Shown: positions 645-23,013 of the stretch, in pieces
Layout of the letters: each line of letters opens with the position of its first letter
How positions within the stretch are numbered: the first letter of the stretch is position 1
Assembly: GCA_016744615.1 (NCBI GenBank)
Contig: JADGEA010000012.1
Coordinates: 1 to 38,395 of the forward strand
Direction of reading: 5' to 3'
Source: Flavobacteriaceae bacterium
Lineage (GTDB): Bacteria > Bacteroidota > Bacteroidia > Flavobacteriales > Flavobacteriaceae
Length of the DNA stretch: 38,395 bases
Program-made: the position numbers and the translations under genes
The notes under the pieces: generated by a model
Databases searched by the model: none
The model's input: only the letters and a program-made list of their open reading frames with translations
Told to the model about the DNA's origin: nothing

Positions 645-2528
645 ATGAGAAAACTATACCTATTTATTGTTTTACTTGGATTGAGTTCCATTTTATATGC
701 TCAAAAAGTAATGACTCCTGAGCAATTGATTACACTTAACAGGATTTCTGCTATTGGTTTGACCAATGATAAGCAAAATGTAATCTATAATGTTTCAAAA
801 GTTAATATCAAAGAAAACAATCGAAGTAAAAAAACTTATTTGTTGCCATTGAATGGTGGAGAATCCAAATTGATAAAAGAGTATAAAAATTTAACAAGCA
901 ATAGGTTAGTTTCTCCTGATGGGAAATATGAATTATTTGATAAAGAAGTAAAGATCAATCCGGTTACCGGGCAGGATCATTATAAAGATGTTCCGCAATC
1001 CAATGTAAAAATATACAATAGTTTAAATTATAGGCATTGGGATACTTGGGAAGATGGTAAATTTAGCCATGTTTTTATCAAATCTAAAGAAGGTGAAGTT
1101 GATTTGATGAAGGGAGAACCTTATGATTGTCCGCAAAAACCCTTTGGAGGTGCTGAAGATTATATGTGGAGCTCTGATAGTAAAAAAGTTTTATATGTAG
1201 CTAAAAAATATGAGGGTGCCGAATATGCTAAAACAACCAATAGTGATATTTATGAGTATGATTTGGTAACCAAAAAGACCAAAAACCTTACAGAATATAA
1301 CAAAGGTTATGATGTCTCACCGTCTTTTTCATCCAAAGGAGAACTAGCATGGTTACAAATGAAAAGAGATGGTTATGAAGCAGATAAGAATGATATTATT
1401 GTTCGAAGAAATGGAAAGGATATCAATCTTACAAAAAATTGGGATGGCACGGTAAATAGTTTTATGTGGAGTAATAAAGGAGATAAGATCTATTTTAACG
1501 CTCCTGTTTTTGGTACAGTTCATTTATTTGAAATAGAGATATCTTCATCGGCAAAACCTAATCAAATTACCAAAGGGCAATTTGATGTTAATAGAATCGT
1601 TGGGCAATCTAAAAATAAGATGGTTGTTTCCAGAAGAGATATGAACCATGCTCCGGAGTTATATATTGTTGATCTCAAAAATGGTAAAATGGATCAATTG
1701 ACTCATGCGAATGATGCAATTTATAATGCTTTAAGTCTAGGTGAAATTGAAAAAAGAATTACAAAAGCAACTGATGGTAAAGATCTTCTTTCCTGGGTAA
1801 TCTATCCTCCAAATTTCGATCCAAATAAAAAGTATCCGACAATATTGTATTGTCAGGGAGGTCCTCAAGGTGCTTTAAGCCAGTTTTATTCTTATCGTTG
1901 GAATTTCCAATTAATGGCAGCTCATGGTTATATTATTATTGCTCCAAATCGGAGAGGAATGCCGGGCTATGGAGTAGAATGGAATGAACAAATAAGTAAA
2001 GATTATGGCGGACAAAACATGCAGGATTATCTGTCTGCAATTGATGATATAGCAAAAGAACCTTATGTTGATAAGGATAAATTGGGTTGTATTGGAGCAA
2101 GTTATGGTGGTTATTCAGTGTTTTATTTGGCTGCTTTTCATGAAAAGAGATTCAAAACATTTATTTCGCATGACGGAATTTTTAATGAAAAAAGCATGTA
2201 TGGAACTACCGAAGAATTGTTTTTTGTGAATTGGGATCTTGGCGGGCCATATTGGGAAAAAGACAATAAAGCAGCACAAAAGAGCTATACACTTTTCAAC
2301 CCAGTTGAGCATGTTGAAAAATGGAATACTCCAATCATGATCATACAAGGAGGAAAAGATTACAGAGTTCCTATCGGACAAGGGCTAGAAGCATTTCAGG
2401 CTGCACAATTACAAGGTATCAAAAGTAGATTGTTATATTTTCCAGAGGAAAACCATTGGGTGTTAGATTATCAAAATTCACTAATTTGGCATAGAGAATT
2501 CTACAGATGGCTAAAAGAAACACTATAA
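645..2528 (+). CDS. S9 family serine peptidase (prolyl oligopeptidase/dipeptidyl peptidase-like), secreted
   Basis: 627 aa with an N-terminal signal peptide (LYAQ). An N-terminal beta-propeller-like region is followed by a C-terminal alpha/beta-hydrolase domain with the nucleophile motif GASYGG and distal Asp/His (..ENHW..). The architecture is typical of S9 peptidases. Confidence 0.85.
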   Translation: MRKLYLFIVLLGLSSILYAQKVMTPEQLITLNRISAIGLTNDKQNVIYNVSKVNIKENNRSKKTYLLPLNGGESKLIKEYKNLTSNRLVSPDGKYELFDKEVKINPVTGQDHYKDVPQSNVKIYNSLNYRHWDTWEDGKFSHVFIKSKEGEVDLMKGEPYDCPQKPFGGAEDYMWSSDSKKVLYVAKKYEGAEYAKTTNSDIYEYDLVTKKTKNLTEYNKGYDVSPSFSSKGELAWLQMKRDGYEADKNDIIVRRNGKDINLTKNWDGTVNSFMWSNKGDKIYFNAPVFGTVHLFEIEISSSAKPNQITKGQFDVNRIVGQSKNKMVVSRRDMNHAPELYIVDLKNGKMDQLTHANDAIYNALSLGEIEKRITKATDGKDLLSWVIYPPNFDPNKKYPTILYCQGGPQGALSQFYSYRWNFQLMAAHGYIIIAPNRRGMPGYGVEWNEQISKDYGGQNMQDYLSAIDDIAKEPYVDKDKLGCIGASYGGYSVFYLAAFHEKRFKTFISHDGIFNEKSMYGTTEELFFVNWDLGGPYWEKDNKAAQKSYTLFNPVEHVEKWNTPIMIIQGGKDYRVPIGQGLEAFQAAQLQGIKSRLLYFPEENHWVLDYQNSLIWHREFYRWLKETL

Positions 2529-2560
2529 AATTATTATAAAAACCATTTCAACTTATTATT

Positions 2561-4435
2561 ATGAATTTAAAATATAGATTATTAGTTTTTTTATTGATTC
2601 TGGGATTTCAATTTTCAATTGCCCAGCACAATATTATACCCGTTCCGGTGAATTATGAAAAGTCAAACGGTTCATTTGTATTTCAGGATGAAATTAAATT
2701 TAAAACAGGAAACAAAGAGATAAAGAGTTTAAAAAGCACTCAATTATTTCAAAATTATTTAACAAATTTAGGAATCTCATCAAGTTTTGATAAAAAGGCA
2801 AAGGGAAATTTCATTTCTATTGATTTGAATAAAAAAAAGAATTCTGCCATAGGAAAAGAAGGTTATATCTTAGAAGTAAATGATAAAAGTATTGCTTTAA
2901 AAGCAAATGATCCTGCTGGGATATTTAATGGTTTGCAAACTTTAAAGCAATTAATTCCAATAGTAAATAGTAGAACTATTGAAATTCAATCATGTAAAAT
3001 AGTTGATTATCCACGTTTTGCCTGGAGAGGCTTAATGTTAGATGTGAGTCGTCATTTTTTTACTGTAGATGAAATTAAATCATATTTGGATAAAATGTCA
3101 GCATATAAATTCAATGTATTTCACTGGCATTTAACAGATGATCAGGGTTGGAGAATTGAAATAAAATCTTATCCTAAATTAACAGAAGTTGGAGCATGGA
3201 GAGTAGAGAGGAACGGAACCTTTGGAGAAGGAAGAGCAGCTCCCAAAGAGGGTGAAAAAGCAACTTATGGTGGTTTTTATTCTCAGGAACAAATTAAAGA
3301 TATTGTACGATACGCAGCAGATAGAAATATTACTATTGTACCCGAGATTGATGTACCAGGTCACAGTATGGCCGTACTGGCAGCTTACCCTGAACTTTCT
3401 GTACAAAAAGAATCTAAATATGTTAGTCCGGGAAATAAATTTTCAGAATGGTATGGAGATGGTACATTTAAAATGCTTATTGAAAACACTTTGAATCCAA
3501 TTGATGAAAACGTTTATGATTTTATAGATAAAGTTTTTACAGAAGTTGCTCAACTATTTCCGGGTGATTATATCCATATGGGAGGAGATGAGGCCTATCA
3601 TGGTTATTGGGATGAAAACCCTGAAGTACAGAAATTCATGAAGAAACATAAAATAAAAAATAGTCATGAGTTGCAGAGTTACTTTGTAAAAAGAGTTGAA
3701 AAGATTATTAGTAGTAAGGGGAAAAAAATGATTGGATGGGATGAGATACTTGAAGGTGGTTTGGCAGATGGTGCTGCAGTGATGAGTTGGAGAGGAATGA
3801 AAGGTGGAATTGAAGCAGCTAAAATGGGACATGAAGTAGTTATGACACCAACAACTTATGCTTATTTAGATTATATGCAGGGAGATGTAACCGTTGAGAA
3901 TAAGATATATGCAAGTCTTAGTTTGGAAAAGACCTATAAATTTGAACCTGTTCCTGATGAAATTGAAGCAAAATACGTTTTAGGAGGGCAAGGTAATTTA
4001 TGGACGGAAGCAGTTCCTACTTTACAATTTGCTTATTATATGACTTATCCAAGGGCTTTCGCTATTGCGGAGACTTTATGGAGTCAAAAAAAAGATAAGA
4101 ACTGGGATGACTTTGTGAGAAGAACAGAAGAGAATATGATTCGCTTTGACAGAGAAGGAGATAATATTGCAAAAGCTGTTTTTGATCCAATTGTGACAGT
4201 ATATAAAAATGACGATGTTGTGATGTGTAAGTTAGAGAATAATATCCCTGGTACAGAAATATATTATTCCATTGATAATACTTATCCGGTTAAATTTGCT
4301 AAAAAGTATACAGATCCTTTTATGATTCCAGCCGGTAATTTAAAATTACATACACAAACTTTTAGAGAAGGAAAACCGATTGGGCATGAATTGATCATTA
4401 ACAGAGAAGACCTTGTTAAAAGAATTAAAAAATAA
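2561..4435 (+). CDS. GH20 beta-N-acetylhexosaminidase, secreted
   Basis: 624 aa with a signal peptide. GH20 signatures are RFAWRGLMLDVSRHF, HWHLTDDQGWR and the catalytic IHMGGDE (Asp-Glu pair). An N-terminal GH20b-like domain and a C-terminal beta-sandwich are also present. Confidence 0.9.
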   Translation: MNLKYRLLVFLLILGFQFSIAQHNIIPVPVNYEKSNGSFVFQDEIKFKTGNKEIKSLKSTQLFQNYLTNLGISSSFDKKAKGNFISIDLNKKKNSAIGKEGYILEVNDKSIALKANDPAGIFNGLQTLKQLIPIVNSRTIEIQSCKIVDYPRFAWRGLMLDVSRHFFTVDEIKSYLDKMSAYKFNVFHWHLTDDQGWRIEIKSYPKLTEVGAWRVERNGTFGEGRAAPKEGEKATYGGFYSQEQIKDIVRYAADRNITIVPEIDVPGHSMAVLAAYPELSVQKESKYVSPGNKFSEWYGDGTFKMLIENTLNPIDENVYDFIDKVFTEVAQLFPGDYIHMGGDEAYHGYWDENPEVQKFMKKHKIKNSHELQSYFVKRVEKIISSKGKKMIGWDEILEGGLADGAAVMSWRGMKGGIEAAKMGHEVVMTPTTYAYLDYMQGDVTVENKIYASLSLEKTYKFEPVPDEIEAKYVLGGQGNLWTEAVPTLQFAYYMTYPRAFAIAETLWSQKKDKNWDDFVRRTEENMIRFDREGDNIAKAVFDPIVTVYKNDDVVMCKLENNIPGTEIYYSIDNTYPVKFAKKYTDPFMIPAGNLKLHTQTFREGKPIGHELIINREDLVKRIKK

Positions 4436-9799: not shown

Positions 9800-12025
9800 T
9801 TATTTTTTATTTTGACTATCACTTATAGATGGTGGTGGGTTTTTAATTCCCCACTCATTAGGAATGTTATTCATGTAAAGTTCTAAGATTCCCCCTTCAC
9901 TAATATCTGTATGTCTGAACCAAGACTGCAATAAAGACTTTCCATTTAAGATAGCTTTGGTAACATAGATGTTGTCTCCAGATAAGTTATGTACTCTAAT
10001 CTCAAATGTTTTACCATTATCCATCTTTATTTTGGTATTTCCAATAATAGGACTACCTATTAAATATACATCTTGACCGGCATTAGGAAAAATACCCATG
10101 GCTTGAAAAGCAAACCAGGAAGACATTGACCCTGAATCATCATTACCGGGTAAGCCACCTCTACCACCATGATAATATTCAGTAATTATTCTATGAATAA
10201 TCTTTGCTGACTTATCGTATCTTCCAGCCCATACATATAAATTAGGAGTTAAAAAACCAGGTTCATTTTCTATGATATAATATTTTCTTTTAAAAAACGT
10301 ATCTAATCTGTTTACAAAGGCTTTATTCCCTCCTGATAATTTTATTAACTCTTTTACATCTTGAGGGACATACAAAGAATATTCCCATGAAATACTTTCA
10401 TAGAAGAAATTATGCCAAGTTCCTCTTTTAAAAAGCGAAAAGTCATCGATCCATTCTCCTTGTTTATTTTTTGGACTAATAAATCCAGTTACACCATGAC
10501 TTTCTATAGGCTTCCATAAATTTCTCCAATTTGAAGCTCTACTTTTATATTTTTGATAATCATCTTCTTTTCCAAGTCCTTTTGCTACTTGGGCAATTCC
10601 CCAATCACAATTTGCATATTCTACAGTTCGTGTTCCTGCACGCTCATAAGAAGTTGATACATAACCTAACGTATTATAATCACTAAGTCCACCCCGACCT
10701 TCTTTTCGTTCATTGTTAGGAGCTATTTCTGCATTTTTTATCATCGCTTGATAAGCTATTTCATAATTAATACCTTTAATTCCTTTTACATAAGCATCTG
10801 CAATTACCAAATCACAATTGCTTCCTCCTTGTGTAAGACCATTATCATTTCCACTTCTTCCATCAGGCATATAACCTTCTTTTTCATAAATATTTAATAA
10901 TGAATTAATAATGTCTACCTGTGTTTTTGTATCAACTAATGTCAGCAAAGGATGTAATGTTCTAAAGGTGTCCCATATAGCGTAATAATCGTCATAATAT
11001 ACATCATCGGGATTCCAATTTTTAATTTCACCTGTTTTTTTAACGGGTTGCAAAAAAGAATGATATAAAGCTGTATAAAATATTTTTTTTATATCTTCTG
11101 ATGTTCCTGAAATTTCAATTTTACTTAGTTTTTTATTCCATTGAGTTTCAGCATTACTTTTTATTTTTTCAAAGTCCCAATACGGATTTTCCATTTCAAG
11201 ATTCATTTTTGCTTTTTTGATACTTAAAAATGATATCCCAACTTTTACTTTAATTACCTGATTCTTTTTTACATTGTAAGTAAAATAAGCTCCAGTTTTT
11301 TCACCGGTATCATGCTGTTTTTTTTGAAGTTCCTGTTTTTTACCAGACTTCCATGTTCCATAAGTATCTGAGGGTGTATCAAGTATCGCATAAAAATATA
11401 CAGTATAAGGTTTTCCTTTGTTCCATCCTCCTTTAATAGTTGTAGTACCTTGTACTTCGCTAGCGTTTAAAATATTTACAGAAGAACCTACTAATTGTTG
11501 ATCTTCTCCATACGCCCAACTTCGTGTTAAAAAACTTCCCAAATCAAGTAGCACGTGTGCATCACCTTCTTTTTGAAAAATATATTTATGAAAACCTGAA
11601 CTATGAGTTGTTGTTAATTCGACATTAATATTATAATCTTCTAAATCAACACTATAATACCCAGGAGATGCTTTCTCATTTTTTCTGGGAGAAGAATAAT
11701 CAATAATATTCAAATCTCCCATTGTCGTAGTTAATAGCACATTCCCATATTTTGGACCACCACCTGTTCCGCTAACATGGGTATGGCTAAAGCCCAAAAT
11801 ATCTCCTGTAGGATGATATCCTGAATTTGTATCTCTACGAAAACAATCTGGACCTAATTTCACCATTCCATAAGGTAAACTAACCCCGGGGAAAGTATTC
11901 CCTTTATTTTCTACCCCAATAAATGGATCAACATATTTTGTGTAATTTAAAATAACACCCTGTGAGTAAACATTGATGTTTATTAGACTTACTAAAGCTC
12001 CAATTAAGAAATATTTATATTTCAT
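9800..12025 (-). CDS. GH92 family alpha-mannosidase (alpha-1,2-mannosidase-like), secreted
   Basis: 741 aa with a signal peptide. GH92 N-terminal signature YVDPFIGV..GNTFPGVSLPYGMVKLGPD. C-terminal catalytic signature GGLPGNDDSGSMSSWFAFQAMGIFP (the GNDD.G.MS.W motif). Confidence 0.85.
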   Translation of the reverse strand: MKYKYFLIGALVSLININVYSQGVILNYTKYVDPFIGVENKGNTFPGVSLPYGMVKLGPDCFRRDTNSGYHPTGDILGFSHTHVSGTGGGPKYGNVLLTTTMGDLNIIDYSSPRKNEKASPGYYSVDLEDYNINVELTTTHSSGFHKYIFQKEGDAHVLLDLGSFLTRSWAYGEDQQLVGSSVNILNASEVQGTTTIKGGWNKGKPYTVYFYAILDTPSDTYGTWKSGKKQELQKKQHDTGEKTGAYFTYNVKKNQVIKVKVGISFLSIKKAKMNLEMENPYWDFEKIKSNAETQWNKKLSKIEISGTSEDIKKIFYTALYHSFLQPVKKTGEIKNWNPDDVYYDDYYAIWDTFRTLHPLLTLVDTKTQVDIINSLLNIYEKEGYMPDGRSGNDNGLTQGGSNCDLVIADAYVKGIKGINYEIAYQAMIKNAEIAPNNERKEGRGGLSDYNTLGYVSTSYERAGTRTVEYANCDWGIAQVAKGLGKEDDYQKYKSRASNWRNLWKPIESHGVTGFISPKNKQGEWIDDFSLFKRGTWHNFFYESISWEYSLYVPQDVKELIKLSGGNKAFVNRLDTFFKRKYYIIENEPGFLTPNLYVWAGRYDKSAKIIHRIITEYYHGGRGGLPGNDDSGSMSSWFAFQAMGIFPNAGQDVYLIGSPIIGNTKIKMDNGKTFEIRVHNLSGDNIYVTKAILNGKSLLQSWFRHTDISEGGILELYMNNIPNEWGIKNPPPSISDSQNKK

Positions 12026-12176: not shown

Positions 12177-14291
12177 TCATAACGGATCTTTTAGCCCCCA
12201 TTTTTTATTTGGAATAGCCCCCATTTTAAAAATTAATTTTCCTCCCGATAAGATTTCATTATGCCTTATCCATGCTCTATTCAAAGGTTTACCATTTAGC
12301 ATTGCGGACTGAATATATATATTTATATCACTCACATCATCTGCTTGAATAACAAATGTGTTTTTTGTGTCAATATGTATCGTTACCTTTTTAAATAAAG
12401 GAGAACAAATTGCATAAAAAGGCTCGCCAGGACATACTGGATATATTCCCATAGAAGCAAAAATATACCATCCTGACATTGTTCCCGCATCATCGTCCAT
12501 ATCTGTAATATACCCTTCTGGTGTATCCAAAAACACCTCACGTATTATGGGTTCTTTAAATATTTTACTACCATATCGATTTATTGTTGGTTCTGTGAGA
12601 ATTTGATGAACTAGTTTTTGAGTTTTCCATGGAGAATCAGTATAAAGATAAAGAAAGGGAACTTGAATATCTGGTTGATTTCCAACATTAAAAAGATTGT
12701 TAGCAAAAAAATAATCCAATTGCTTTTCAAAAATATGTTTGCCTCCTAACTTTTCTTGTATTCCTCTTATATCAAAAGGAACAAACCAACGGTATTGCCA
12801 TAATGTGCCTTGATAAAGGCCAGCACCCTCCATAAGATCTGCATCTTTACCCATAATTTTAAATTTTTCGTCCCACACTTTTTCATATTCATATGCTTTG
12901 TCAATGTATGTTTTTGAATCTTCAACATAACCTAATTTTTCGGCTATTTTAGACATAGCCCATAAATCATAACTCGATTCCAAAATTTTATCAGGTGTTT
13001 CAAAAGAGAGGTTTTTAATTTCCTCTTGTAATTTTGGGTAAATATTTTCCAAAGAATAATTCAATAAATTTTTTTCTAAAGCATCTAATAAAACAGTTAT
13101 AGAATGTTCTGTTCGTACTGTTAAAAAAGGTTCTGTAGGTGTTGACCAATCTACTTTCCCTTGCTTATATAGCTCACCTAATGAAGTCATCATATCAATA
13201 TAATGTTCACGATATAATAAAGAGAAGAGCGGCAGCTTAGTTCTAAATGTATCCCAAATAGACCATCCATAAAAATGGTTTTTTTGTTTTGTTTTATAGA
13301 GTTCTCCATCACTTCCTCGATATTCTCCTCCCTGATCCTGAATGATGAATGGGGTTTGAACTACATGGTATAAATGTGTGTAAAATTTTCGCTTTAATAT
13401 ACTATCCGAGGTTTCTATATCTACTGTTTGTAATATTTTCTCCCAATCATTAACTGCATTTTTCCGTACAGACGTGAAAGACACACTTGATTGTACATTA
13501 AGATTATTTTTTGCATTTTCTACACTCACAACCGAAAGCGCACAACGAACTAGTACTTCCTGATTCTTTAGTGATGAAAATTTTATTTCAATTTTTGATT
13601 CATTACTTGTAATTTTCACCTCTTCTTTATCAATAGATAATGCAAAATAGATTGTATAATCTCCCTTGTTACAAATATTACGAGATGATATTTTTCCAAA
13701 AATGACACCTGACGTATCTATTTGATGTTCTTCATAATTATTCCCTACAAAACTAGATGCTAAATCAATAACTAAACCTACATGTTCTGATTTAGGAAAT
13801 GTATATCTGTGAAAAGCTACTTGTCGAGTAGCAGTTAATTCTGCTTGTACTTTGTTTTCCAACACTACCGAATAGTATCCAACCGAAGCAATTTCTGTTT
13901 TTTTATCTAATTTTAGTGATTTTGAAATCTTTTGATTGCCATCAGTTAATACAAAGGGTAATATTCGAATATTACCTCCTACGCCCTGACATCCAACACC
14001 TGAAAAACGAGTATTAGAGAATCCTAATATTGTTTGAGCAGAAAAATCATATCCAGAATAGCCCAAAGGATCTGAATCTGGTGCTGGTTTTACCATCCCA
14101 AAAGGGACAGCAGCAGCAGGATCTGTGTGTCCATGCTCACCTGATGTACACATAAATGGATCGATAAAATTATTTTTTCTATTGCTTTTCTGTAGGTTAA
14201 TTTGTGGACTACATGCCATAAATAATAACAAAATCACAGGTGAAATTAATTTCATTGTGGCACTTTTTTCATAATTAATTCCATGTATCAT
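12177..14291 (-). CDS. GH92 family alpha-mannosidase, lipoprotein
   Basis: 704 aa. IDPFMCTSGEHGHTDPAAAVPFGMVKPAPDS near the N-terminus and DMDDDAGTMSGWYIFASMGIYPVCPG near the C-terminus match GH92 signatures. The start is probably the internal Met at 14255 (MKLISPVILLLFMAC lipobox). Confidence 0.85.
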   Translation of the reverse strand: MIHGINYEKSATMKLISPVILLLFMACSPQINLQKSNRKNNFIDPFMCTSGEHGHTDPAAAVPFGMVKPAPDSDPLGYSGYDFSAQTILGFSNTRFSGVGCQGVGGNIRILPFVLTDGNQKISKSLKLDKKTEIASVGYYSVVLENKVQAELTATRQVAFHRYTFPKSEHVGLVIDLASSFVGNNYEEHQIDTSGVIFGKISSRNICNKGDYTIYFALSIDKEEVKITSNESKIEIKFSSLKNQEVLVRCALSVVSVENAKNNLNVQSSVSFTSVRKNAVNDWEKILQTVDIETSDSILKRKFYTHLYHVVQTPFIIQDQGGEYRGSDGELYKTKQKNHFYGWSIWDTFRTKLPLFSLLYREHYIDMMTSLGELYKQGKVDWSTPTEPFLTVRTEHSITVLLDALEKNLLNYSLENIYPKLQEEIKNLSFETPDKILESSYDLWAMSKIAEKLGYVEDSKTYIDKAYEYEKVWDEKFKIMGKDADLMEGAGLYQGTLWQYRWFVPFDIRGIQEKLGGKHIFEKQLDYFFANNLFNVGNQPDIQVPFLYLYTDSPWKTQKLVHQILTEPTINRYGSKIFKEPIIREVFLDTPEGYITDMDDDAGTMSGWYIFASMGIYPVCPGEPFYAICSPLFKKVTIHIDTKNTFVIQADDVSDINIYIQSAMLNGKPLNRAWIRHNEILSGGKLIFKMGAIPNKKWGLKDPL

Positions 14292-14306: not shown

Positions 14307-15554
14307 CTATTTTTCACCGGGAGAATAATCATTTGAATTCACCGGATTAATCCGGACGGGATTATTTCCTGGCAGAGTAATATAATAATCAGTCCCGTAA
14401 GCATTTCCTGGCTTAAAATAATCAGTAGAAAGTACTTGGGCACCACTTTCGAAAGCAGCTACAGACCTTGTTCTGTCATTTACTTTCGCTTCATAAGTGT
14501 CAATGTCTGTTCTTGATCTTACTAAGTATCCATTTTTGACATGCTCCATTATCTCATTTTTTCTAATGATAGCATTGTCCAATAGAAGAAATGCAGAATA
14601 TGGCCTTCCAGGTTGTGATTGTAAGAACATTGCCCTTCCCTCTAAGGATGGTCTATCTTTTAAGTAAGGAGTTGGGTTTTCAATATTAGCACCAGCAGTT
14701 GAAGGTAGTAGCATAAAGAGGAACTTTCCTCTAGAATTTGTTAATAATGGCCAGTTTTGTGCTTTTACTGCTTCTTCCAATGTAGAATATTTACCTCGTA
14801 CTTGGTCAGGAGTGATGACCTTATCCTTTCCAAGTATTGAAAAAATTTTTTCGTCCAATGCATCAAATGCTTCCTCATCAAACGGTAAAACTTTTGTGGA
14901 GTTTGGGAATATTGGCATACCGCTATCTTTCGCTTCAATAATAATGAAGATAGGAATATGTTTAGAATTCTTATCTGACCAACTCTTTAAAGCTTTTAGA
15001 GCTAGTGAGAAAGTAGGGTAATGTGATCTAAAATCGATATCAGCGATGTGCATTACCTTAAATCCAGGTTCAGACAAATCAGTCGTGTCAAATGGTAATA
15101 AGTCTTTCTTACCTTGTTTTTTAAGAAATTCGTAAGCAGCAGGTTTTGTAAATCTCCCCCCTTTTGGATCATAGTACACATCGATTTCAAAAGAGCGTAA
15201 TCCTGCATTCAACTGCTCATTAAAATTTGGATGGTTATAAGACAGACTTTCCCTGAATTTTATTTTATTAGGGTGGTATTCATTAAAAAAAACTTTTTGT
15301 TCATCTGTCATCTGAGTAAAATATTTATCTATCATTCCTTCTAATACAGGGTCTAAATAATTCAGTACTGCTGTGTCGATGGGTTTTGAATAACTATTAT
15401 GCGTTCCTAAAACCTGAATTTGATTAATTTTGAGGTTAGATGGTAGGGTTAGGTCTGATGTTTTGATATCAATATCATTTTTTTTTAATTCAATATTGCA
15501 AGAAATGGTTAGTAAGTAAATCGTAATTAATGTAAAAGAAGTGAAGATTTTCAT
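14307..15554 (-). CDS. PI-PLC X-domain (Ca2+-dependent phosphoinositide phospholipase C-like) phosphodiesterase, lipoprotein
   Basis: 415 aa with a lipoprotein signal (LLTISC). The QVLGTHNSY motif matches the catalytic His box of the PLC X-domain TIM barrel. The size and the motif order fit the PLC-like phosphodiesterase superfamily. Confidence 0.55.
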   Translation of the reverse strand: MKIFTSFTLITIYLLTISCNIELKKNDIDIKTSDLTLPSNLKINQIQVLGTHNSYSKPIDTAVLNYLDPVLEGMIDKYFTQMTDEQKVFFNEYHPNKIKFRESLSYNHPNFNEQLNAGLRSFEIDVYYDPKGGRFTKPAAYEFLKKQGKKDLLPFDTTDLSEPGFKVMHIADIDFRSHYPTFSLALKALKSWSDKNSKHIPIFIIIEAKDSGMPIFPNSTKVLPFDEEAFDALDEKIFSILGKDKVITPDQVRGKYSTLEEAVKAQNWPLLTNSRGKFLFMLLPSTAGANIENPTPYLKDRPSLEGRAMFLQSQPGRPYSAFLLLDNAIIRKNEIMEHVKNGYLVRSRTDIDTYEAKVNDRTRSVAAFESGAQVLSTDYFKPGNAYGTDYYITLPGNNPVRINPVNSNDYSPGEK

Positions 15555-15795
15555 TGGGTTTGCCTATTTATTAAGTTATTTAAGAGTTTCTTTTAAATTG
15601 TAGATATATTTTCTATAGCATACAACTCCTTATACGCTCAAGTTAACATGATTAAATTCTGTCTCTAAAATCTGTGTTTTGTTTAGAAAGTTGAATATCA
15701 AGAATTGTACAGTCCTAAAAATATGAGTTTACTATCGTAAACGACTATTTTGAGTACAAACATAACGAAGATAGCAGAATTTCTAAACCAAATAT

Positions 15796-15840
15796 TAACT
15801 CAATACATCGAAGAATTTATTTCTTCGATGTATTGAGTTA
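15796..15840 (-). terminator. 20-bp perfect hairpin downstream of susD (attenuator or terminator within the PUL operon)
   Basis: taactcaatacatcgaagaa - tttat - ttcttcgatgtattgagtta is a perfect 20-bp inverted repeat with a 5-nt loop. It sits in the 340-bp susD-to-PLC intergenic region. No clean U-tract follows it. Confidence 0.4.
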
Positions 15841-15894
15841 ATTAGCTGTCAAAAGGTTTTATTAATAGCTAGTTATAACTATTATCTATAAATA

Positions 15895-17547
15895 TTAATA
15901 TCCTGGGTTTTGTGTGCTTAGTGAGTTCCCTCCTTCGTCAGTTCCTCCTCCGTCAATTTGACTTTGAGGAATCGGCATATATTCGTTTTTACCTGACACA
16001 AATGTTGCGCCACCTAAATAACCTCTTTCAATTTGTTCCTTTATGAGATATGTATTTATCACTTCAGCTGCAATACCCCATCGAACTAAATCGAAGAATC
16101 GTTGTCCTTCGTGCGCCATTTCTAAACGTCTTTCTGCACGTAAAGCTGTAACAGCTTCATCTTTTGAAGCAAAAGTATTATAAGTCTCTATCAGATAGTT
16201 TGCTGCATCAGCAGTGTTATCTAAATTTTGAATATAGTTTCCTGTTTTAGCTCTATCTCGTACCATATTGATATACACTCTACCACCCGGTAAATCACCA
16301 AGTTCAATTAAAGCTTCTGCTTTCCAAAGTAATACATCGGCATAACGGATAATTAGATAATTTGAAGATGTAACATAAGGCCATGATGCTAAATAATGAG
16401 GATCATTTGCTGACATTACCCTTTTTTTAGGTCCATAAGGTCCATAAGTTTCTAAATCTCTAGCCCAACTATCGCTATATTCAATTTCTAAATCCTTGTA
16501 TGGAATTCCTGGTCTTCCAACAGTTACATCCAATCTTGGATCTACAGTATTTGTATCTGTAATATCTACATTATCCAATAATGGCAATCCATTAACATCT
16601 GTTTTGAAAGAATTGACTAAATTTTGTGAAGCTCTTAAAAAACCATAACCTGGGTATCTTGGACCACCTGGAGGCATTAAACGATCACCTATAGAACCGT
16701 TATAATTTCTTGGAGAACCATCATTAATAGAATATTGAATAGAAAAAACAACTTCAGAACCATTATCATTATCAGGTAAAAATACTTCATTGAAATTTGT
16801 TTCTAAAACATATCCACCTTCATCAATAACAGCAGAAGCTGCAAGACTAGCTTCAGTCCATTTTTTTTGGTATAAATATGTTTTACTCAAATATGCTTTG
16901 GCAGCCCATTTTGTTGGGCGTCCAAAATCTGCTTGCGTACCAGGTAAAACATCAAAGGCTGCATTAAAATCATCTTCTATTTTAATCCATACTTGTTCAG
17001 GTGTTATTAATGTATTAGGCAAATAATTTCCATTTTCATCTATGTATGAAATTCGATTATACAATTTTTTTAATTCAAAATAAAAATGACCTCTTAAAAA
17101 ACGCATTTCTGCAATACGTTGTGTCTTTAAGGTTTCACTAATTTCGGTTGAATTATTTAAAACATTAAGAACTGTATTACTTCGTTTTACTCCTTCATAA
17201 AGTACTGCCCATTTTTGTTCAACGTCTCTTATTTGAGGGTCGGTTGCATAAATTTCCATTCGATGAATTTGATTTTGATCACCAGTTCCTCCACCGCCTT
17301 TATATGCGTCATCAGAAAGAACATCGCCAAAACTCCAATTAGATGCTGGTGAATTAAAGGCATTACTTGCTTCGTTTCCCTGACCATTTAAAATACTATA
17401 TGCAGAAATCACTAAAGATTCAATATTCTCTGGCGCACCAACCTGTTCTTCAGTAAGTTCTCCATAGGGTTCATTTTCTAAGAATTCATCACTACAAGAA
17501 GTAAAAAAAATTCCTATAATAAATACTATATATATTATATTTTTCAT
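15895..17547 (-). CDS. susD: SusD/RagB family nutrient-binding outer membrane lipoprotein
   Basis: 550 aa with a lipoprotein signal (FFTSCSDEF). TPR-like helical SusD architecture. Lies immediately downstream of susC with a 12-nt gap. Confidence 0.9.
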   Translation of the reverse strand: MKNIIYIVFIIGIFFTSCSDEFLENEPYGELTEEQVGAPENIESLVISAYSILNGQGNEASNAFNSPASNWSFGDVLSDDAYKGGGGTGDQNQIHRMEIYATDPQIRDVEQKWAVLYEGVKRSNTVLNVLNNSTEISETLKTQRIAEMRFLRGHFYFELKKLYNRISYIDENGNYLPNTLITPEQVWIKIEDDFNAAFDVLPGTQADFGRPTKWAAKAYLSKTYLYQKKWTEASLAASAVIDEGGYVLETNFNEVFLPDNDNGSEVVFSIQYSINDGSPRNYNGSIGDRLMPPGGPRYPGYGFLRASQNLVNSFKTDVNGLPLLDNVDITDTNTVDPRLDVTVGRPGIPYKDLEIEYSDSWARDLETYGPYGPKKRVMSANDPHYLASWPYVTSSNYLIIRYADVLLWKAEALIELGDLPGGRVYINMVRDRAKTGNYIQNLDNTADAANYLIETYNTFASKDEAVTALRAERRLEMAHEGQRFFDLVRWGIAAEVINTYLIKEQIERGYLGGATFVSGKNEYMPIPQSQIDGGGTDEGGNSLSTQNPGY

Positions 17548-17559
17548 AATTGATTTTTG

Positions 17560-20500
17560 TTAAAAATTAATATTAATCCCAAAGGTAAATGTCTTTGAAC
17601 TAGGGTATATGCCTCTATCTACACCTATATCTAAATTTCGATCATCAGAGGTGTAACTCTGTAAACCGATTTCAGGATCTAAACCATCATAATTAGTAAT
17701 AGTAAACAAATTATAAGCTTCAAAATACACTCTAAATCGAGATGCTTTTATTTTTTGGGCTATACTTTCAGGAAATGAATATCCTACTTGAAATGTTTTT
17801 AATCGAAAATAAGAACCGTCTTGAACATAATAAGATGAAGGACGAATATTATTATTTAAATCATTTAATGAAACTCTTGCTAAATCAGTATTTGTATCTT
17901 GAGGTGTCCATGCATTTAAAATTCGTCCATGTTTATTATAATTTGCTAAATTGAAAAAATCGTTATAATAACGAGATAAATCATAGATGTCATTACCTTG
18001 TGAACCTTGAAAAAATAATGTAAAGTCAAAAGCTTTATAAACTGCTGACAAATTGATTCCATAGGTAATATCAGCATGTGGTGATCCTATAAAGGTTCTA
18101 TCTTCAGCATCAATTACACCATCTCCGTTTAAATCTTTAAAAATAAAATCTCCTGCTTGTGCATTGGGTTGAATACTGGATGTTGCATCTGCATCAGTTT
18201 GAAATATTCCATCAACTACATGACCATAAAAGGAAGCTATCGGCTGTCCTACTGCTGTTCTAGAAGTTGATTGATCAAAATTAATACTATGCAAAACTGC
18301 GGGGTCTGTTTCAATAAAATTAATTCCTTCACCTAAAGAAAGTAATTTATTATCGATTATCGCAAAGTTTAAACCTACGTTAAAGTTGAAATCTTTAGTA
18401 CGATTGCTTTGATAATTTATATCAAACTCAAATCCTTTATTTTCCATTTCACCTACATTATTCCATTGCCCTCTATTGGTAATACCCACATCTGGCGGAA
18501 GTGTTTGAAATAATAATAAATCTTCTGTATTTTTAATAAAATAATCTGCTGTAATATTTAATGAATTATTCAAAAATCCAAATTCTAATCCTATATTTGA
18601 TTGTGTTGTAGTTTCCCATTTCAAATCTGGATTTGCAATTCTTGATAAAGTATATCCTGTTTGTGTACTTGTTTGGGATCCGTTAATTGCATAATTGGAA
18701 TAATAAGGGTTACTACTAAATCCTGAAGCAGTTTGATAAGCAGGGATATCTTGATTTCCTGTTTTTCCCCAACCTATCCTTAATTTTAAATTAGATAATG
18801 TACCTTCTTTGTTAAAGAAATCTTCTTCTGAAATTCTCCACCCTGCAGATAGTGCAGGAAAAGTACCCCAACGATTGTCTAACAATTTAGAAGTTCCATC
18901 TCTTCTTAAAGTAGCTGAAAATAAATATTTATTGTCATAATTATAATTTATTTTCCCAAAATAAGAAAACAAGGTAAATTCTATTTTATCACCTGTGTTG
19001 GTTTGTGTACCTTGATCTCCTGCATTTAACACTCTAATATTAAGTTCATTTGTCGGTAAATCTTGTATTGAAGCAGTTGTATATTCAAATACATTCGAAA
19101 TGCTTTCTAAACCTACTAATACATTCAAATTGTGTTTATCATTGAATGTTTTTGTATAGTTTAATGTATTAGACCAAACCCAATCAAATTTTATCTCATT
19201 TACAATAGATAAATCATTTATTGCTCTATGAGCATTAGGTTCTACATAAGTAGGGTTAAAATTTTCACTTTTAAAAGTAGTGTAATTAACACCAAAATTT
19301 GTTTTGAATTTTAAGTCTTCAATTAATTGAATTTCAGCAAATAAGTTACCAAAAATCTTTACATTATTTCTCTCATTATCTTTGTTGCGGTATAAGTTTC
19401 CTAAAGGGTTTTGCACATCAGATGGTGGATACCCTGAAAACTCTCCATTTATATCATATACTGGTGCGATACTTGGCATTCTGAATGCATCGTAAACAAC
19501 ATTTCCTAACAAAGAATTTGTACTTGTGCCCACAGAATTCGAAAAGGCTACAGTTAAATTTTCTCCAACAGTAACTTTACCATCAAATAATTTGTAGTCT
19601 GAATTGAGGCGAGCTGTAATTCGATTAAAATTTGTATATTTTAATATACCTTCCTGATCAAAATAATTTAAAGAGAATAAAGAATGTGATTTCTCATTTC
19701 CTTGAGAGAAATTTAAATTATAAGATTGAATAAGTGCAGGGTTAAAAATTTCTTCAACCCATTTGGTATTAGCTGAAGGAATGGTGTTTTCTGCATCTAA
19801 AAAAGCAGGTATTACGGGAGAAGCTCCATTTCCATAAATAGCATGTGATGGAGTAATACCATCATTGTCATATGCTTGCCAATATACATCACCATATTCT
19901 TGAGCATCTAGCATGCTTGGTAAATTGGAAACGTTTTGACTACCTAAATACATATCAAAAGAAAGTTTAGGTTCACCTGCTTTACCTTTTTTAGTTGTAA
20001 TAATAACAACACCATTTGCTGCTCTTGAACCATAAATACTTGAGGATGATGCATCTTTTAATACTTGTAATGATTCAATATCATTTGGGTTAATCAAACT
20101 TAACCCGGTAGTTGTAGGAACACCATCAATCACATACAGAGGATCATTATTTCTAATCGTACTAAAACCTCTAATTCTAAGAGTAGTTACATCTCCAGGT
20201 GAACCTGAACTCATAACATTAACACCAGCAACTCTTCCTTGTAACATACTATTTACATCGGCTACTGGCTGGGTTACAACTTCATCAAGATTAACAATAG
20301 CAACAGCTCCTGTAAGGTCACTCTTTCGCTCTGAAGTATATCCAGTAACAATTACTTCATCTAAAGAAGATGTCTCTGATAGTAATTTAATGTTAATCAC
20401 ACTTTGATCATTAATCTCAATTTCTTGAGTTTCAAAACCCATATACGATACCATTAGTATTGTAGCATTCTCTGAAACAGTTATGCTATATTTTCCATCA

Positions 20501-21006
20501 AAATTTGTGGTTGTACCATTATCAGTTCCCTTTACAAGGATAGCAGCACCAGGTAAAGGAAACCCATCATTATCAGTAACTGTTCCTGTAATTTCTTTTT
20601 GTTGTTGCTTCTCTTTTATGATAAGTAATGGAATTATTTTTTTACTATTATCTGATTTTAAAATGATTTGTTTATCTAGTACTTCATAAGATACAGGCAT
20701 AGTTAAGAACAAATTATCTAAAATATTTTTAACTTTTTCTTTTTTTACCTTAACTGAAATAATTTTATTAACATCAATATCTTTTCTATTAAAAAGAAAT
20801 TTGAATTCTGTTAAAAATTCTATTTCATTTAATACGGTTTCTAAAGTAACATTCTCAAAATCTAAAGTAATCTTTGTCTTTTGAGCATAGTTATTAGCTT
20901 GAACATTAAATAGTGCAATGAACAGTAAAAATGTTGTTATTTTCATTTTTAAGTCAAATTTTAGAGTGAATAGAAGTATACTCCTACTCTTAGTAAGTTT
21001 TTTCAT
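17560..21006 (-). CDS. susC: SusC/RagA family TonB-dependent outer membrane transporter with N-terminal STN (anti-sigma-coupled) extension
   Basis: 1148 aa. After the signal peptide comes an STN-type extension domain, then a carboxypeptidase-regulatory-like domain (TGTVTDNDGFPLPGAAILVKG), then the TonB-box/plug region (LDEVIVTGY), then the barrel, with a C-terminal Phe. The true start may be the internal Met at 20946 (MKITTFLLFIALFNVQA signal). Confidence 0.9.
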   Translation of the reverse strand: MKKLTKSRSILLFTLKFDLKMKITTFLLFIALFNVQANNYAQKTKITLDFENVTLETVLNEIEFLTEFKFLFNRKDIDVNKIISVKVKKEKVKNILDNLFLTMPVSYEVLDKQIILKSDNSKKIIPLLIIKEKQQQKEITGTVTDNDGFPLPGAAILVKGTDNGTTTNFDGKYSITVSENATILMVSYMGFETQEIEINDQSVINIKLLSETSSLDEVIVTGYTSERKSDLTGAVAIVNLDEVVTQPVADVNSMLQGRVAGVNVMSSGSPGDVTTLRIRGFSTIRNNDPLYVIDGVPTTTGLSLINPNDIESLQVLKDASSSSIYGSRAANGVVIITTKKGKAGEPKLSFDMYLGSQNVSNLPSMLDAQEYGDVYWQAYDNDGITPSHAIYGNGASPVIPAFLDAENTIPSANTKWVEEIFNPALIQSYNLNFSQGNEKSHSLFSLNYFDQEGILKYTNFNRITARLNSDYKLFDGKVTVGENLTVAFSNSVGTSTNSLLGNVVYDAFRMPSIAPVYDINGEFSGYPPSDVQNPLGNLYRNKDNERNNVKIFGNLFAEIQLIEDLKFKTNFGVNYTTFKSENFNPTYVEPNAHRAINDLSIVNEIKFDWVWSNTLNYTKTFNDKHNLNVLVGLESISNVFEYTTASIQDLPTNELNIRVLNAGDQGTQTNTGDKIEFTLFSYFGKINYNYDNKYLFSATLRRDGTSKLLDNRWGTFPALSAGWRISEEDFFNKEGTLSNLKLRIGWGKTGNQDIPAYQTASGFSSNPYYSNYAINGSQTSTQTGYTLSRIANPDLKWETTTQSNIGLEFGFLNNSLNITADYFIKNTEDLLLFQTLPPDVGITNRGQWNNVGEMENKGFEFDINYQSNRTKDFNFNVGLNFAIIDNKLLSLGEGINFIETDPAVLHSINFDQSTSRTAVGQPIASFYGHVVDGIFQTDADATSSIQPNAQAGDFIFKDLNGDGVIDAEDRTFIGSPHADITYGINLSAVYKAFDFTLFFQGSQGNDIYDLSRYYNDFFNLANYNKHGRILNAWTPQDTNTDLARVSLNDLNNNIRPSSYYVQDGSYFRLKTFQVGYSFPESIAQKIKASRFRVYFEAYNLFTITNYDGLDPEIGLQSYTSDDRNLDIGVDRGIYPSSKTFTFGININF

Positions 21007-21143: not shown

Positions 21144-22331
21144 TTAGTTAATAATTATTTTATTATTCTCAATAGTATACATAATTTCAAAACTTTTATT
21201 AAAAGATTTCAAAACTTGTTCAATGGTCTCTATATTAAAAGTAGCATTGTAATATTGTTCACCAAGTTTCTTGTTATTATTTATGATGGATACATTATAA
21301 TGCCTTTCTAATTTTTTAACAATATTTTTGAATTGTAAATTTTTAAAAATAAGTTTACCATTTTTCCAGCTTGTGTATAAGCTAGTATCTACTAAGTTAA
21401 TTGAAATTTCTTTATTTGACTTATTCCAATTAGCCATATGACCAGATTCTAAAAGAGAAGTTTCATCATCATTATAGACTTCATTCTTGCCAAACAAACT
21501 TACAGATCCTTCAACTAACACTGTACTAATGGTGGGATCTTCTGGATAAGAAGAAACATTAAATTCTGTTCCAAGAACTCTAATACACATTTCATTCGTA
21601 TTTACAATGAATGGATGATTTGTGTCTTTGGTTACATCAAAATAAGCTTCTCCACTTAATAAATATACTTGTCTTTTTTTACCGTTGATAAATTTCACAG
21701 GGTACTTGAATGATGTGCCTGCATTCAAAAAAACTTCAGTACCATCTGAAAGAACGATTTGAAACTTCTTCCCATAAGGAACAGTTAATTCATTGTAAGC
21801 TAACTTTCCCTTTTTATTATTAAACAAAGAAGGTGAAGGTGTTTGTGAATTATTTTTATAATTTAATTCGCTTCCACTTTGAACTCCAACAATTCTTCCT
21901 TTTTTATCAAGAATTCTTTTTTCTCCAGTAGTTTTTATTACTTCAATATTGCCATTATCTAATTTAATTGTAATAGCTTCATCGCTTATTTTTAATTTTT
22001 GAATTGTATCATCTCCATTTTGAAAGAAAAATGTGATTCCAATAATACCTATGAATATTGCTGCATATTTAAATACAGATTGAATACGTATTCTATAAAG
22101 TACATTGCTGTCTTCTTTAATTTTTTTAAGAAGTAACTTTTTTGTTTTATTTGTATCGAATTGACTCATATGATAGTCAATCGCATAATTTACTTTTACA
22201 TATTTACAAAATACTTGTTCATTCTCAGGTTCTTTTATCCAAATAGATAATTCATCTAATTCAGCAGCAGTTATTGAATTAGTAACGTATTTTATAATTA
22301 ATTTTTCTATTTCTGGTAATTTCATCAACAT
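21144..22331 (-). CDS. FecR family anti-sigma factor / transmembrane sensor
   Basis: 395 aa. N-terminal cytoplasmic sigma-binding region, a single TM segment (AAIFIGIIGITFFF), and a periplasmic FecR domain plus C-terminal domain. Lies upstream of the STN-bearing susC. Confidence 0.85.
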   Translation of the reverse strand: MLMKLPEIEKLIIKYVTNSITAAELDELSIWIKEPENEQVFCKYVKVNYAIDYHMSQFDTNKTKKLLLKKIKEDSNVLYRIRIQSVFKYAAIFIGIIGITFFFQNGDDTIQKLKISDEAITIKLDNGNIEVIKTTGEKRILDKKGRIVGVQSGSELNYKNNSQTPSPSLFNNKKGKLAYNELTVPYGKKFQIVLSDGTEVFLNAGTSFKYPVKFINGKKRQVYLLSGEAYFDVTKDTNHPFIVNTNEMCIRVLGTEFNVSSYPEDPTISTVLVEGSVSLFGKNEVYNDDETSLLESGHMANWNKSNKEISINLVDTSLYTSWKNGKLIFKNLQFKNIVKKLERHYNVSIINNNKKLGEQYYNATFNIETIEQVLKSFNKSFEIMYTIENNKIIIN

Positions 22332-22437: not shown

Positions 22438-23013
22438 ATGAAGAAAAATTTTAATAATAATAAGCTAATTAGTCATTTAAAAAATGGTGATAAAAAGGCT
22501 TATTCATTTTTGGTAAATTATTTCAATCATAAATTATGCATTTATGCCAATAGCTTAGTGAACGATCATGCTATGGCTGAAGATATTGTTCAAAATGTTT
22601 TTATTAAAGTTTGGGAAAGGCGAAAGAGGTTAAATGAAAAGTATTCTTTAAATAGCTTTTTGTATAAACTGGTTTACAATGAGTTTATTGACCAATATCG
22701 AAAGAAACAATCAGTTATGTTATTAGAGAAAAAATATATTCAAACCTTGAATAAAATAACGAATGATAAAAATGAAGAGGATACTCAAAAGATGATTAAG
22801 CTGGTTATGAAATTAATTGAAAATTTACCCCCAAAATGCAAAAAAATATTTTTATTGAGTAAAAAAGAAGGATTGACAAATATTGAAATTGCTGAATATT
22901 TAAACACTTCTGTTAAATCTGTAGAAGGGCATATTACTAGAGCATATATCATAATTAGAAAATCTGTTGATGGAAGATTTAAGGAGATACTTTTTTTAAT
23001 TTTCAATCATTAA
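22438..23013 (+). CDS. ECF (sigma-70 family, group 4) RNA polymerase sigma factor
   Basis: 191 aa. Region 2 (DIVQNVFIKVWERRKRL..YNEFIDQYRK) and a region 4 HTH (GLTNIEIAEYLNTSVKSVEGHITRA). It is divergent from fecR. Confidence 0.85.
   Translation: MKKNFNNNKLISHLKNGDKKAYSFLVNYFNHKLCIYANSLVNDHAMAEDIVQNVFIKVWERRKRLNEKYSLNSFLYKLVYNEFIDQYRKKQSVMLLEKKYIQTLNKITNDKNEEDTQKMIKLVMKLIENLPPKCKKIFLLSKKEGLTNIEIAEYLNTSVKSVEGHITRAYIIIRKSVDGRFKEILFLIFNH

Follow-up and report, generated by a model that had tools for sequence, protein, structure and literature searches.

A PF16670 phosphodiesterase gene linked to SusCD-type transport and GH92 mannosidases in a Flavobacteriaceae locus that may take up mannosylated phosphoinositol head groups

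The gene considered here lies at 14307..15554 on the minus strand of a 38,395-nucleotide stretch of DNA (positions 1 to 38,395 of contig JADGEA010000012.1, assembly GCA_016744615.1, Flavobacteriaceae bacterium; GC content, 31%), referred to as the window, and encodes a lipoprotein of the Ca2+-dependent phosphatidylinositol-specific phospholipase C (PI-PLC) type, as assigned from the open reading frame (ORF), Pfam, Foldseek and residue conservation. The locus around it resembles Pus1, an inositol-phosphate import system of Flavobacterium johnsoniae, and is read here, with a probability of roughly 0.55, as a Pus1-like import system for mannosylated phosphoinositol head groups in which the phospholipase C (PLC) would act after import. 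A first reading of the letters alone (the original prediction) had instead placed the enzyme at the cell surface as a glycan phosphodiesterase.

The ORF starts with ATG, contains its TAG stop within those coordinates and encodes 415 amino acids. As had been predicted, the N-terminus (MKIFTSFTLITIYLLTIS-C19) forms a signal peptide that ends at the cysteine of a lipobox (LTIS-C19; Cys codon at 15498-15500), and a GTHNSY catalytic histidine box is present at residues 50-55 (G50-T-H52-N53-S-Y55; His codon at 15399-15401) and is invariant in 203 relatives. The protein has a single Pfam match, PF16670 (PI-PLC-C1, 'Phosphoinositide phospholipase C, Ca2+-dependent'), which extends over residues 41-404 and the full profile (1-329 of 329) and, at an E-value of 1.5e-105 and 353.3 bits compared to a cut-off of 29.9, is far above chance level; no NCBIfam model matched the protein. 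Pfam returned no match to PF00388, PF00387 or a C2 domain at E<=0.01, which agrees with the predicted absence of a C2 domain, while the predicted absence of a Y domain is correct as a Pfam label (no PF00387) but not for the protein itself: PF16670 covers the entire TIM barrel, and the C-terminal half equivalent to the Y box lies within it with invariant R346, R348, D350, S376, T377, and D378. A eukaryotic-type X/Y PI-PLC was considered and rejected, given one contiguous barrel, the missing PF00388, PF00387, and C2 matches, and the remoteness of eukaryotic PLCs in fold (E ~4e-6, 10-13% identity). PF16670 was found in all 120 of the listed homologs, and the family to which the protein belongs, as one of its ordinary members, is known and widespread.

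An AlphaFold2 model generated from a 15-sequence alignment (predicted local distance difference test, pLDDT, 76; predicted template modelling score, 0.79; the last ~65 residues poor) has the PLC-like TIM barrel that had been anticipated, and in a Foldseek comparison with the PDB its fold is nearest to the enzymes from Streptomyces antibioticus (3h4w; E 2.8e-12) and Pseudomonas (5fyp; E 1.2e-11). These two enzymes account for the top 11 matches (3h4w and 5fyo/p/r), followed by the eukaryotic PLC delta, beta, epsilon, and zeta, and then by the Ca2+-independent PI-PLCs of Listeria and Bacillus (ranks 29, 39, and 40), with GDPD matches at ranks 41-44. A sequence search of the PDB returned only Ca2+-dependent bacterial PI-PLCs (3h4w, E 7e-8; profile, 1.4e-9), with only the central third of the protein aligned, and the motifs in the N- and C-terminal parts were assigned using weak sub-threshold alignments and the fold search. 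In an alignment of 203 relatives, H52, N53, D125, H169, E207, and K209 are invariant and E123 occurs in 200 of the 203 sequences, and the active-site motifs line up with VHNAY, ELDLW, and KIEMKD of SaPLC1, the S. antibioticus enzyme. Based on PLC-delta1 and SaPLC1, H52 and H169 are taken to be the catalytic histidines and N53, E123, D125, and E207 the Ca2+ ligands. Because this histidine pair and the Ca2+ ligand set are conserved, the enzyme is very probably active and Ca2+ dependent; a second catalytic histidine (H169) and a ligand set (N53/E123/D125/E207), the absence of which had been named as telling against the original prediction, are thus both present and conserved in the 203 relatives.

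The protein shares with SaPLC1 (3h4w/3h4x) and the PI-PLC of Pseudomonas sp. 62186 (5fyo/5fyp/5fyr) the HN box, the E-x-D motif, a His-x-Pro motif (H199 in the window protein; GHRPI in SaPLC1), and an (I/L)-E/D-x-K motif, but identity to the two enzymes is only 15-18% and it is ~80-115 residues longer through insertions. Unlike the window protein, both are secreted, soluble enzymes with no link to transporters or glycosidases. SaPLC1 works via a 1,6-cyclic inositol phosphate and hence has no need of the inositol 2-OH; if this chemistry holds for the PF16670 family, cleavage of 2-O-glycosylated inositol would be allowed.

The predicted setting of the gene, a glycan-utilization operon with susC and susD, is borne out by a SusC, a SusD, and two GH92 (glycoside hydrolase family 92) genes on the same strand. 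All of the genes of this polysaccharide utilization locus (PUL) are on the minus strand except for the sigma factor, and are ordered ECF (extracytoplasmic function) sigma, FecR, SusC, SusD, the PLC gene, GH92b, and GH92a. The divergent ECF sigma factor is of the Bacteroidota type (22438..23013, plus strand; TIGR02985, E 7.9e-39) and is followed by a FecR-type anti-sigma factor (21144..22331; PF04773 and PF16344), a SusC-type TonB-dependent transporter with an N-terminal STN signalling domain, Plug, and barrel (17560..21006; TIGR04056, E 1.3e-276; PF07660), and a SusD-like lipoprotein (15895..17547; PF07980 and PF14322), with a gap of 340 bp between susD and the PLC gene and of 16 bp between the PLC gene and GH92b. 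The two alpha-mannosidases, GH92b (12177..14291; PF07971 and PF17678, TIGR01180) and the end gene of the locus, GH92a (9800..12025; PF07971 and PF17678, E 3e-149), are both on the minus strand and differ in their N-termini. In GH92b a lipobox (LFMAC), lacking an acidic export motif, follows an internal Met13, such that the true start is probably near 14255 and the annotated ORF begins 12 codons too early. GH92a carries a signal peptidase I (SPI)-type signal peptide (…NINVYSQ/GV), by which it is predicted to be a soluble periplasmic enzyme, and its best solved relative is 6f8z (3.3e-115). For GH92b, the best solved relatives are CcMan5 (2xsg; 1.3e-73) and 6f8z (1.3e-70), a negligible margin. 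CcMan5 (2xsg/4aq0) cleaves the mannose-phosphate linkage of Man-1-P-6-Man. Pfam identified no GH76, GH125, GH38, or GH99 mannan enzymes in the window, and the genes bordering the locus, a Band7 gene and, at the opposite end, modABC, are unrelated to it.

GH92-containing PULs of Bacteroides reportedly serve the use of yeast alpha-mannan and high-mannose N-glycan. The window locus shares with them SusC/SusD, GH92 exo-alpha-mannosidases and, for some, an ECF-sigma/anti-sigma pair; however, these classical PULs include endo-acting GH76, GH99, or GH18 enzymes together with GH125 or GH38, and no PI-PLC, whereas the window has no endo-glycanase and a phosphodiesterase replaces the 'first-cut' enzyme.

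The linkage between the PLC and GH92 recurs beyond the window. Close-relative loci were located by exact-protein look-ups, and four of the seven that were sampled possess GH92. The nearest relative (L081; 78% identity) has the order sigma, FecR, SusC, SusD, PLC, CN-hydrolase, GH92, GH92, with the CN-hydrolase (amidase superfamily; 10858-11796) between the PLC and the two GH92 genes. A scaffold from TARA Oceans (L083; 67% identity) has an L081-like order as far as a GH92 that is truncated where the contig stops, while Flexithrix dorotheae (L084; 62% identity) and a Flammeovirgaceae genome (L085; 65% identity) have sigma, FecR, SusC, SusD, PLC, DUF218, GH92. Two further Bacteroidota loci (L008 and L016) have the same order through to the PLC, followed by DUF218 and/or GH92 (SusCD, DUF218, and GH92 in L016), and three sphingomonads (L072, L075, and L078) possess a parallel cluster of a plain TonB transporter, PLC, DUF218, and GH92. 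In a neighbour-joining tree of the PLC, the window groups with L081, L083, L084, L008, and L041, L016 is found elsewhere in the Bacteroidota, and L072, L075, and L078 belong to a deep proteobacterial branch. In total, GH92 adjoins the PLC gene on the same strand in nine loci from at least three positions in the PLC tree and two phyla, and occurs nowhere else in ~1.6 Mb of flanking DNA. The GH92 genes beside the PLC in the other loci match GH92b better than GH92a, except for the second GH92 of L081, and the window SusD is part of a separate ortholog group that co-occurs with the PI-PLC gene, with 55-85% identity to its counterparts in L008, L016, L081, L083, L084, and L085. The PLC-GH92 link is recurrent and not accidental, though it marks a minority of the family, and therefore the original prediction does not fall on a lack of co-occurrence with SusC/SusD/GH92, which is conserved in the window clade and is seen again in other loci.

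Across the family, which is large and already named in NCBI records, a word-indexed search returned 1755 matches, including Chryseobacterium, Chitinophaga, Formosa, Polaribacter, and Sphingobacterium, and the neighbourhoods of 80 loci (L001-L080; one genome per species, 10-kb flanks) were compared using clustering, Pfam, and tblastn mapping. An outer-membrane TonB-dependent transporter gene is directly upstream of the PLC gene on the same strand in 75 of these 80 species-level loci. The most common arrangement, in the Bacteroidota (type A; 38 loci), combines a membrane-bound AraC-type regulator, a 950-aa transporter, and the PLC, and that of the Proteobacteria (type B; 29 loci) a TetR-like regulator, in many cases with an MFS_2 permease, a transporter, and the PLC; SusC/SusD is upstream of the PLC in three loci (type C), a different TonB transporter is upstream of it in five sphingomonad loci (type D), and no transporter was found in the remaining five, two of which are cut by a contig end. 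The regulators of the PF16670 genes are lineage specific, being multi-pass membrane AraC-type proteins in the Bacteroidota and ~400-aa TetR-family proteins accompanied by the MFS_2 permease in the Proteobacteria. This distribution suggests that PF16670 and a TonB transporter constitute a general import-and-cleave module well beyond the Bacteroidota. Of the 80 loci, four contain GH92 and seven a DUF218 protein of 420-450 aa; both always adjoin the PLC gene and are never elsewhere in the flanks. In the latter protein, the DUF218 domain is C-terminal and the N-terminal half carries no annotation. Among GH92-type loci, of Bacteroidota and sphingomonads alike, no other partner accompanies the PLC as often (L008, 11230-12504; L084, 11208-12524; L085, 11254-12519; also L016, L017, L072, L075, L078, and L079), and a comparison of the DUF218 protein with the PDB gave no informative relative. 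Other partners of the PLC include a PAP2 phosphatase (L041; 9971-12983) and an alpha/beta-hydrolase esterase (L069; 542-2769). In Limibacter armeniacum (L091; 4912-13254) an ECF sigma, FecR, TonB transporter, PLC, and GH3 glycosidase occur together. In Formosa agariphila (L087, HG315671.1; 5863-21224), PF16670 has three paralogs, a tandem pair behind an AraC regulator and a TonB transporter and a shorter one of 337 aa on the opposite strand. The same locus also has an 860-aa GDPD_2/metallophosphoesterase and a SusC/SusD pair, the SusD of which has S-D-W-G-D at residues 82-86, similar to the ligand motif of PusD1.

The closest known counterpart is from F. johnsoniae, in which a SusCD-like locus induced by phosphate starvation was described as 'PUSI'; it includes an ECF sigma factor and two phosphodiesterases, one of them listed as pf16670 (Lidbury et al. 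ISME J 2020; PMC8115612). As described by Connolly et al. (bioRxiv 10.64898/2026.09.03.749221, Sept 2026), Pus1 consists of an ECF sigma/anti-sigma pair, PusC1/PusD1, PI-PLC1 (Fjoh_4172), and a calcineurin-like putative glycosyl inositol phosphorylceramide (GIPC)-PLC (Fjoh_4173), and Pus1 and Pus2 are required for the bacterium to grow on phosphatidylinositol (PtdIns) and glycerophosphoinositol (GroPI) as the sole phosphorus source. In the same work, PusCD1 was solved by cryogenic electron microscopy with inositol-1-phosphate bound and not GroPI, which in the authors' view could reflect extracellular PLC action, and they speculate on the import of inositol phosphoglycans from GIPCs, which are not commercially available. 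They also report that PusD genes are less often flanked by genes for carbohydrate-active enzymes (CAZymes) and that PusD lineages are polyphyletic, and they refer to a phylogenetically distinct PI-PLC2. The window has the Pus1-type gene set (ECF sigma and anti-sigma, SusC-like, SusD-like, and a PF16670 PI-PLC), with a phosphodiesterase coupled to TonB-dependent import that, as in Pus1, would probably act in the periplasm. The two loci differ in that two GH92 mannosidases occupy the position held in Pus1 by the calcineurin-like putative GIPC-PLC, PF00149 (calcineurin-like phosphoesterase) being absent from the locus and the window by Pfam. The SusD is of another lineage, with 21-27% identity to the PusD1-like proxies of Formosa (L087) and Limibacter (L091); relative to the PusD1 pocket (D84-W85-x-D87, Y307, R312, R321, and T323), for which the L087 protein and its S-D-W-G-D served as proxy, the window SusD is 21% identical and has N-W-S-F-G-D, and it could possibly be a third PusD lineage. 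The PLC itself, a 415-aa lipoprotein subtype, shares 40% identity with the 337-aa paralog that neighbours the PusD1-like gene of L087 and differs from it by an extra helical insertion of ~30 residues behind the His box (aligned residues 66-100). Plant-associated bacteria were the subject of the Pus1 work, whereas at least one close relative of the window is marine and metagenomic (the TARA scaffold). 

A comparable product is known from a fungus, Botrytis cinerea, where a secreted GIPC-PLC (BCIN07g04350; PMC11496612) cuts glycosyl-inositol phospholipid at the lipid-phosphate bond and frees mannose-capped inositol phosphate glycans, the kind of compound proposed here as product or substrate of the window locus. 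Unlike the window PLC, that enzyme is secreted, eukaryotic, and apparently of a different protein family; because the preprint calls Fjoh_4173 a structural homolog of it (10.64898/2026.09.03.749221), the comparison suggests that the Botrytis enzyme belongs with the calcineurin-like metallophosphoesterases and not with the PLC-like TIM barrels. A literature search found no description of a PUL with a PI-PLC and GH92, and the preprint makes no mention of GH92 or mannosidases. The coupling of a PF16670 PLC to GH92 (and DUF218) in the Bacteroidota and sphingomonads thus appears undescribed, and of the claim that the enzyme brings a new accessory activity to CAZyme loci, the novelty of the combination with GH92 stands while the sigma/anti-sigma/SusCD/PI-PLC module has already been published as Pus1.

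The predicted position of the enzyme at the cell surface fared less well. Approximately half of the top 120 relatives possess a plain SPI signal without a lipobox. Plain signals are also found in L016, L017, Chryseobacterium, and most of the proteobacterial relatives, while the orthologs in L081, L083, and L084 have a lipobox. Surface lipoproteins of the Bacteroidota reportedly carry an acidic export signal directly after the cysteine, a rule said not to be absolute. Among 51 relatives with a lipobox, positions +2 to +5 after the cysteine have no acidic residue in 33, one in 17, and two in a single protein; the window PLC has CNIELKK (one acidic residue) and its orthologs CNNNSK, CEAPQY, and CNQTAF, as opposed to the acidic export motif of the window SusD (CSDEF). 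PI-PLC1 of F. johnsoniae carries an SPI signal, with a predicted location in the periplasm, and deletion of the transporter phenocopies deletion of the locus (10.64898/2026.09.03.749221). Because an acidic export motif is missing, many relatives are SPI-only, and the F. johnsoniae data favour the periplasm, action of the PLC in the periplasm after import is the favoured interpretation.

The sequence of events would then be as follows. The STN domain of SusC and the sigma/anti-sigma pair would make expression substrate inducible, and SusD would bind a soluble or amphiphilic mannosylated phosphoinositol head group with the phosphodiester still on, to be imported by SusC. Candidate substrates include glycerophosphoinositol-mannosides (deacylated actinobacterial phosphatidylinositol mannosides, PIMs), the head groups of fungal mannosyl inositol phosphorylceramide (MIPC) or plant GIPC, and fragments of the glycosylphosphatidylinositol (GPI) type. 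Within the periplasm, the GH92 enzymes would strip alpha-mannose, and the lipid-anchored PLC would cut the bond between the inositol phosphate and glycerol, lipid, or another aglycone, presumably with His52/His169 in acid-base catalysis and Ca2+ held by Asn53, Glu123, Asp125, and Glu207. The products could provide inositol phosphate as a phosphorus source and mannose as a carbon source. SusCD-dependent use of PtdIns and GroPI has been demonstrated for the F. johnsoniae locus, which is homologous but apparently not orthologous. The partners of the family (TonB transporters, phosphoesterases, PAP2, and an esterase) and, by analogy, the tested PtdIns- and GroPI-using system of F. johnsoniae point to inositol-phosphate head groups and not to a generic glycan phosphodiester; on this evidence neither a glycan phosphodiesterase nor a lipid phospholipase is to be preferred.

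Several alternatives can be weighed against import of an intact head group. The PLC could instead cleave intact glycosyl-inositol phospholipids (GIPC, MIPC, GPI, or PIM) of foreign membranes or debris at the surface, with SusCD importing the freed glycan for trimming by GH92, an arrangement consistent with the lipobox of the window clade and with classical PULs, which put the first, depolymerising enzyme at the surface; SusC is not known to take intact lipids as cargo, and an imported inositol phosphoglycan would already be without the phosphodiester, making an outside cut logical. The inositol-1-phosphate in the F. johnsoniae structure fits this as well. The alternative is nonetheless rather unlikely given that an export motif is absent from the PLC and its orthologs while the SusD of the same locus has one, that so many relatives have SPI signals only, and that both the genetics and the localisation predictions in F. 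johnsoniae favour the periplasm. Plain phosphate scavenging, with the PLC and SusCD using unglycosylated PtdIns or GroPI as in Pus1 and GH92 belonging to a module for mannan or N-glycan that adjoins them or has become fused to them and shares no substrate with them, accounts for the behaviour of the only studied system, which is induced by phosphate starvation and uses PtdIns and GroPI, and for the lack of a nearby glycosidase in most of the family; L087 and L091 link PLC paralogs to metallophosphoesterase and GDPD genes, and a hairpin after susD (see below) could mark an operon boundary. It is considered improbable: GH92 is confined to positions directly adjoining the PLC in the nine loci, the gap between the PLC gene and GH92b is very short, and the window has no second SusCD pair or other CAZyme that could form an independent mannan PUL.

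The nature of the bond is the point at issue for an enzyme cutting sugar-phosphate-sugar links, such as Man-1-P-6-Man in yeast-type phosphomannan, from which a CcMan5-like GH92 would remove the capping mannose. CcMan5 is indeed the best solved relative of GH92b, but by a negligible margin, and while the PLC-like TIM-barrel superfamily includes diesterases for other head groups (the GDPD matches), the nearest folds and sequences are all inositol-specific PLCs, the characterised homologous locus is inositol specific, and the window lacks the mannan enzymes listed above; this explanation is quite doubtful. Finally, a secreted membrane-damaging PI-PLC or virulence factor of the Listeria or Bacillus type, present in the PUL by chance, belongs to the same superfamily and is represented among the fold matches, yet the transporter synteny in 75 of the 80 loci from free-living soil and marine bacteria, the distinction between Ca2+-dependent PF16670 and the Ca2+-independent toxin-type enzymes, and the lack of a secretion-system signal make it highly improbable, in line with the original prediction, which had argued against a role in virulence.

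A number of observations weigh against the import of mannosylated head groups as proposed. The sequence itself names neither the sugar nor the lipid of the substrate. Neither the DUF218 partner nor a phosphatase is present in the window, and in the sampled family GH92 and DUF218 are in the minority, with most relatives accompanied by a transporter and regulator only. Among the seven close relatives sampled, three (L086, L090, and L092) are orphans with no transporter or GH92 nearby, and the neighbour-joining tree used to place the recurrences has no support values. The window SusD appears not to be an ortholog of PusD1 and has no D-W-x-D at the equivalent place, a comparison made with an N-terminal proxy only. 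The structural model of the PLC is only moderate (pLDDT and C-terminus as above), and the strong hairpin after susD could uncouple susCD from expression of the enzyme genes.

Plant GIPC, fungal MIPC, actinobacterial PIMs, and GPI anchors rank with the most abundant glycolipids of membranes, and to our knowledge no bacterial pathway for the uptake and degradation of glycosyl-inositol phospholipid head groups is known. It is tentatively suggested, as a possibility well short of even odds, that the PF16670 clusters linked to GH92 and DUF218 are the first dedicated bacterial systems for consuming mannosylated inositol-phospholipid head groups (anchors of PIM/lipomannan, MIPC/M(IP)2C, plant or algal GIPC, and GPI), that they arose more than once (with SusCD in the Bacteroidota and a plain TonB transporter in the sphingomonads), and that PF16670 chemistry was perhaps chosen as not needing a glycosylated inositol 2-OH. 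If true, the role of 'endo' enzyme on glycosyl-inositol phospholipids would naturally fall to PF16670 and not to the Bacillus-type PI-PLC, and a single locus would combine the scavenging of phosphorus with foraging for glycans. The 2026 work on Pus1 showed that inositol phosphate compounds can be imported by SusCD-type transporters. The present locus type provides, as candidates, the genes for the PLC, GH92b, the DUF218 protein, and a SusD of distinct lineage, together with a specific prediction of a mannosyl-inositol-phosphate substrate; import of such head groups would extend the Pus system from plant-associated to marine Bacteroidota and Alphaproteobacteria. Were the GH92 link incidental, the gene would be one more member of a known phosphorus-scavenging family.

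The spacer between susD and the PLC gene (15555-15894, minus strand) is unusually long, 340 bp in the window and 385 bp in L081 compared to 50-130 bp in other loci of this type. Approximately 55 nt past the susD stop, a terminator scan identified a perfect 20-bp hairpin with a T-rich tail (15795..15841, minus strand), and folding of 116 nt of RNA around it gave -39.1 kcal/mol (z = -9.3). The hairpin appears terminator- or attenuator-like and, from its position between susCD and the enzyme genes, could set their expression apart. A related imperfect stem is partly kept in the spacer of L081, with changes on both arms in a pairwise alignment, while a repeat search for hairpins in the susD-PLC intergenic regions of L081 and L083 returned none. 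Because the spacer is not conserved beyond the flanking coding DNA (79% identity to L081 versus 80-86%) and matches no Rfam family, no claim is made for a regulatory RNA. A scan for sigma-70 promoters gave no excess over background (80 found versus 81 expected), and TATGTTTG at 15757-15764 (minus strand) fits the Bacteroidota -7 promoter consensus, TAnnTTTG.

Elsewhere in the window, an S9 peptidase and a GH20 beta-hexosaminidase (645-4435, plus strand) are found ~5 kb past one end of the PUL, and an endonuclease/exonuclease/phosphatase-family protein (31444-32493, minus strand) 8 kb past the other end, ~16 kb from the PLC gene. All three types are known from the degradation of glycoproteins or phosphoglycans and may be unrelated to the PUL. 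Further along, a tyrosine recombinase (XerC/D-like; 32998-33888, plus strand) is located just upstream of the conserved tuf-nusG-rplA region, with ORFs at 34904-36091, 36535-37089, and 37608-38300 on the plus strand.

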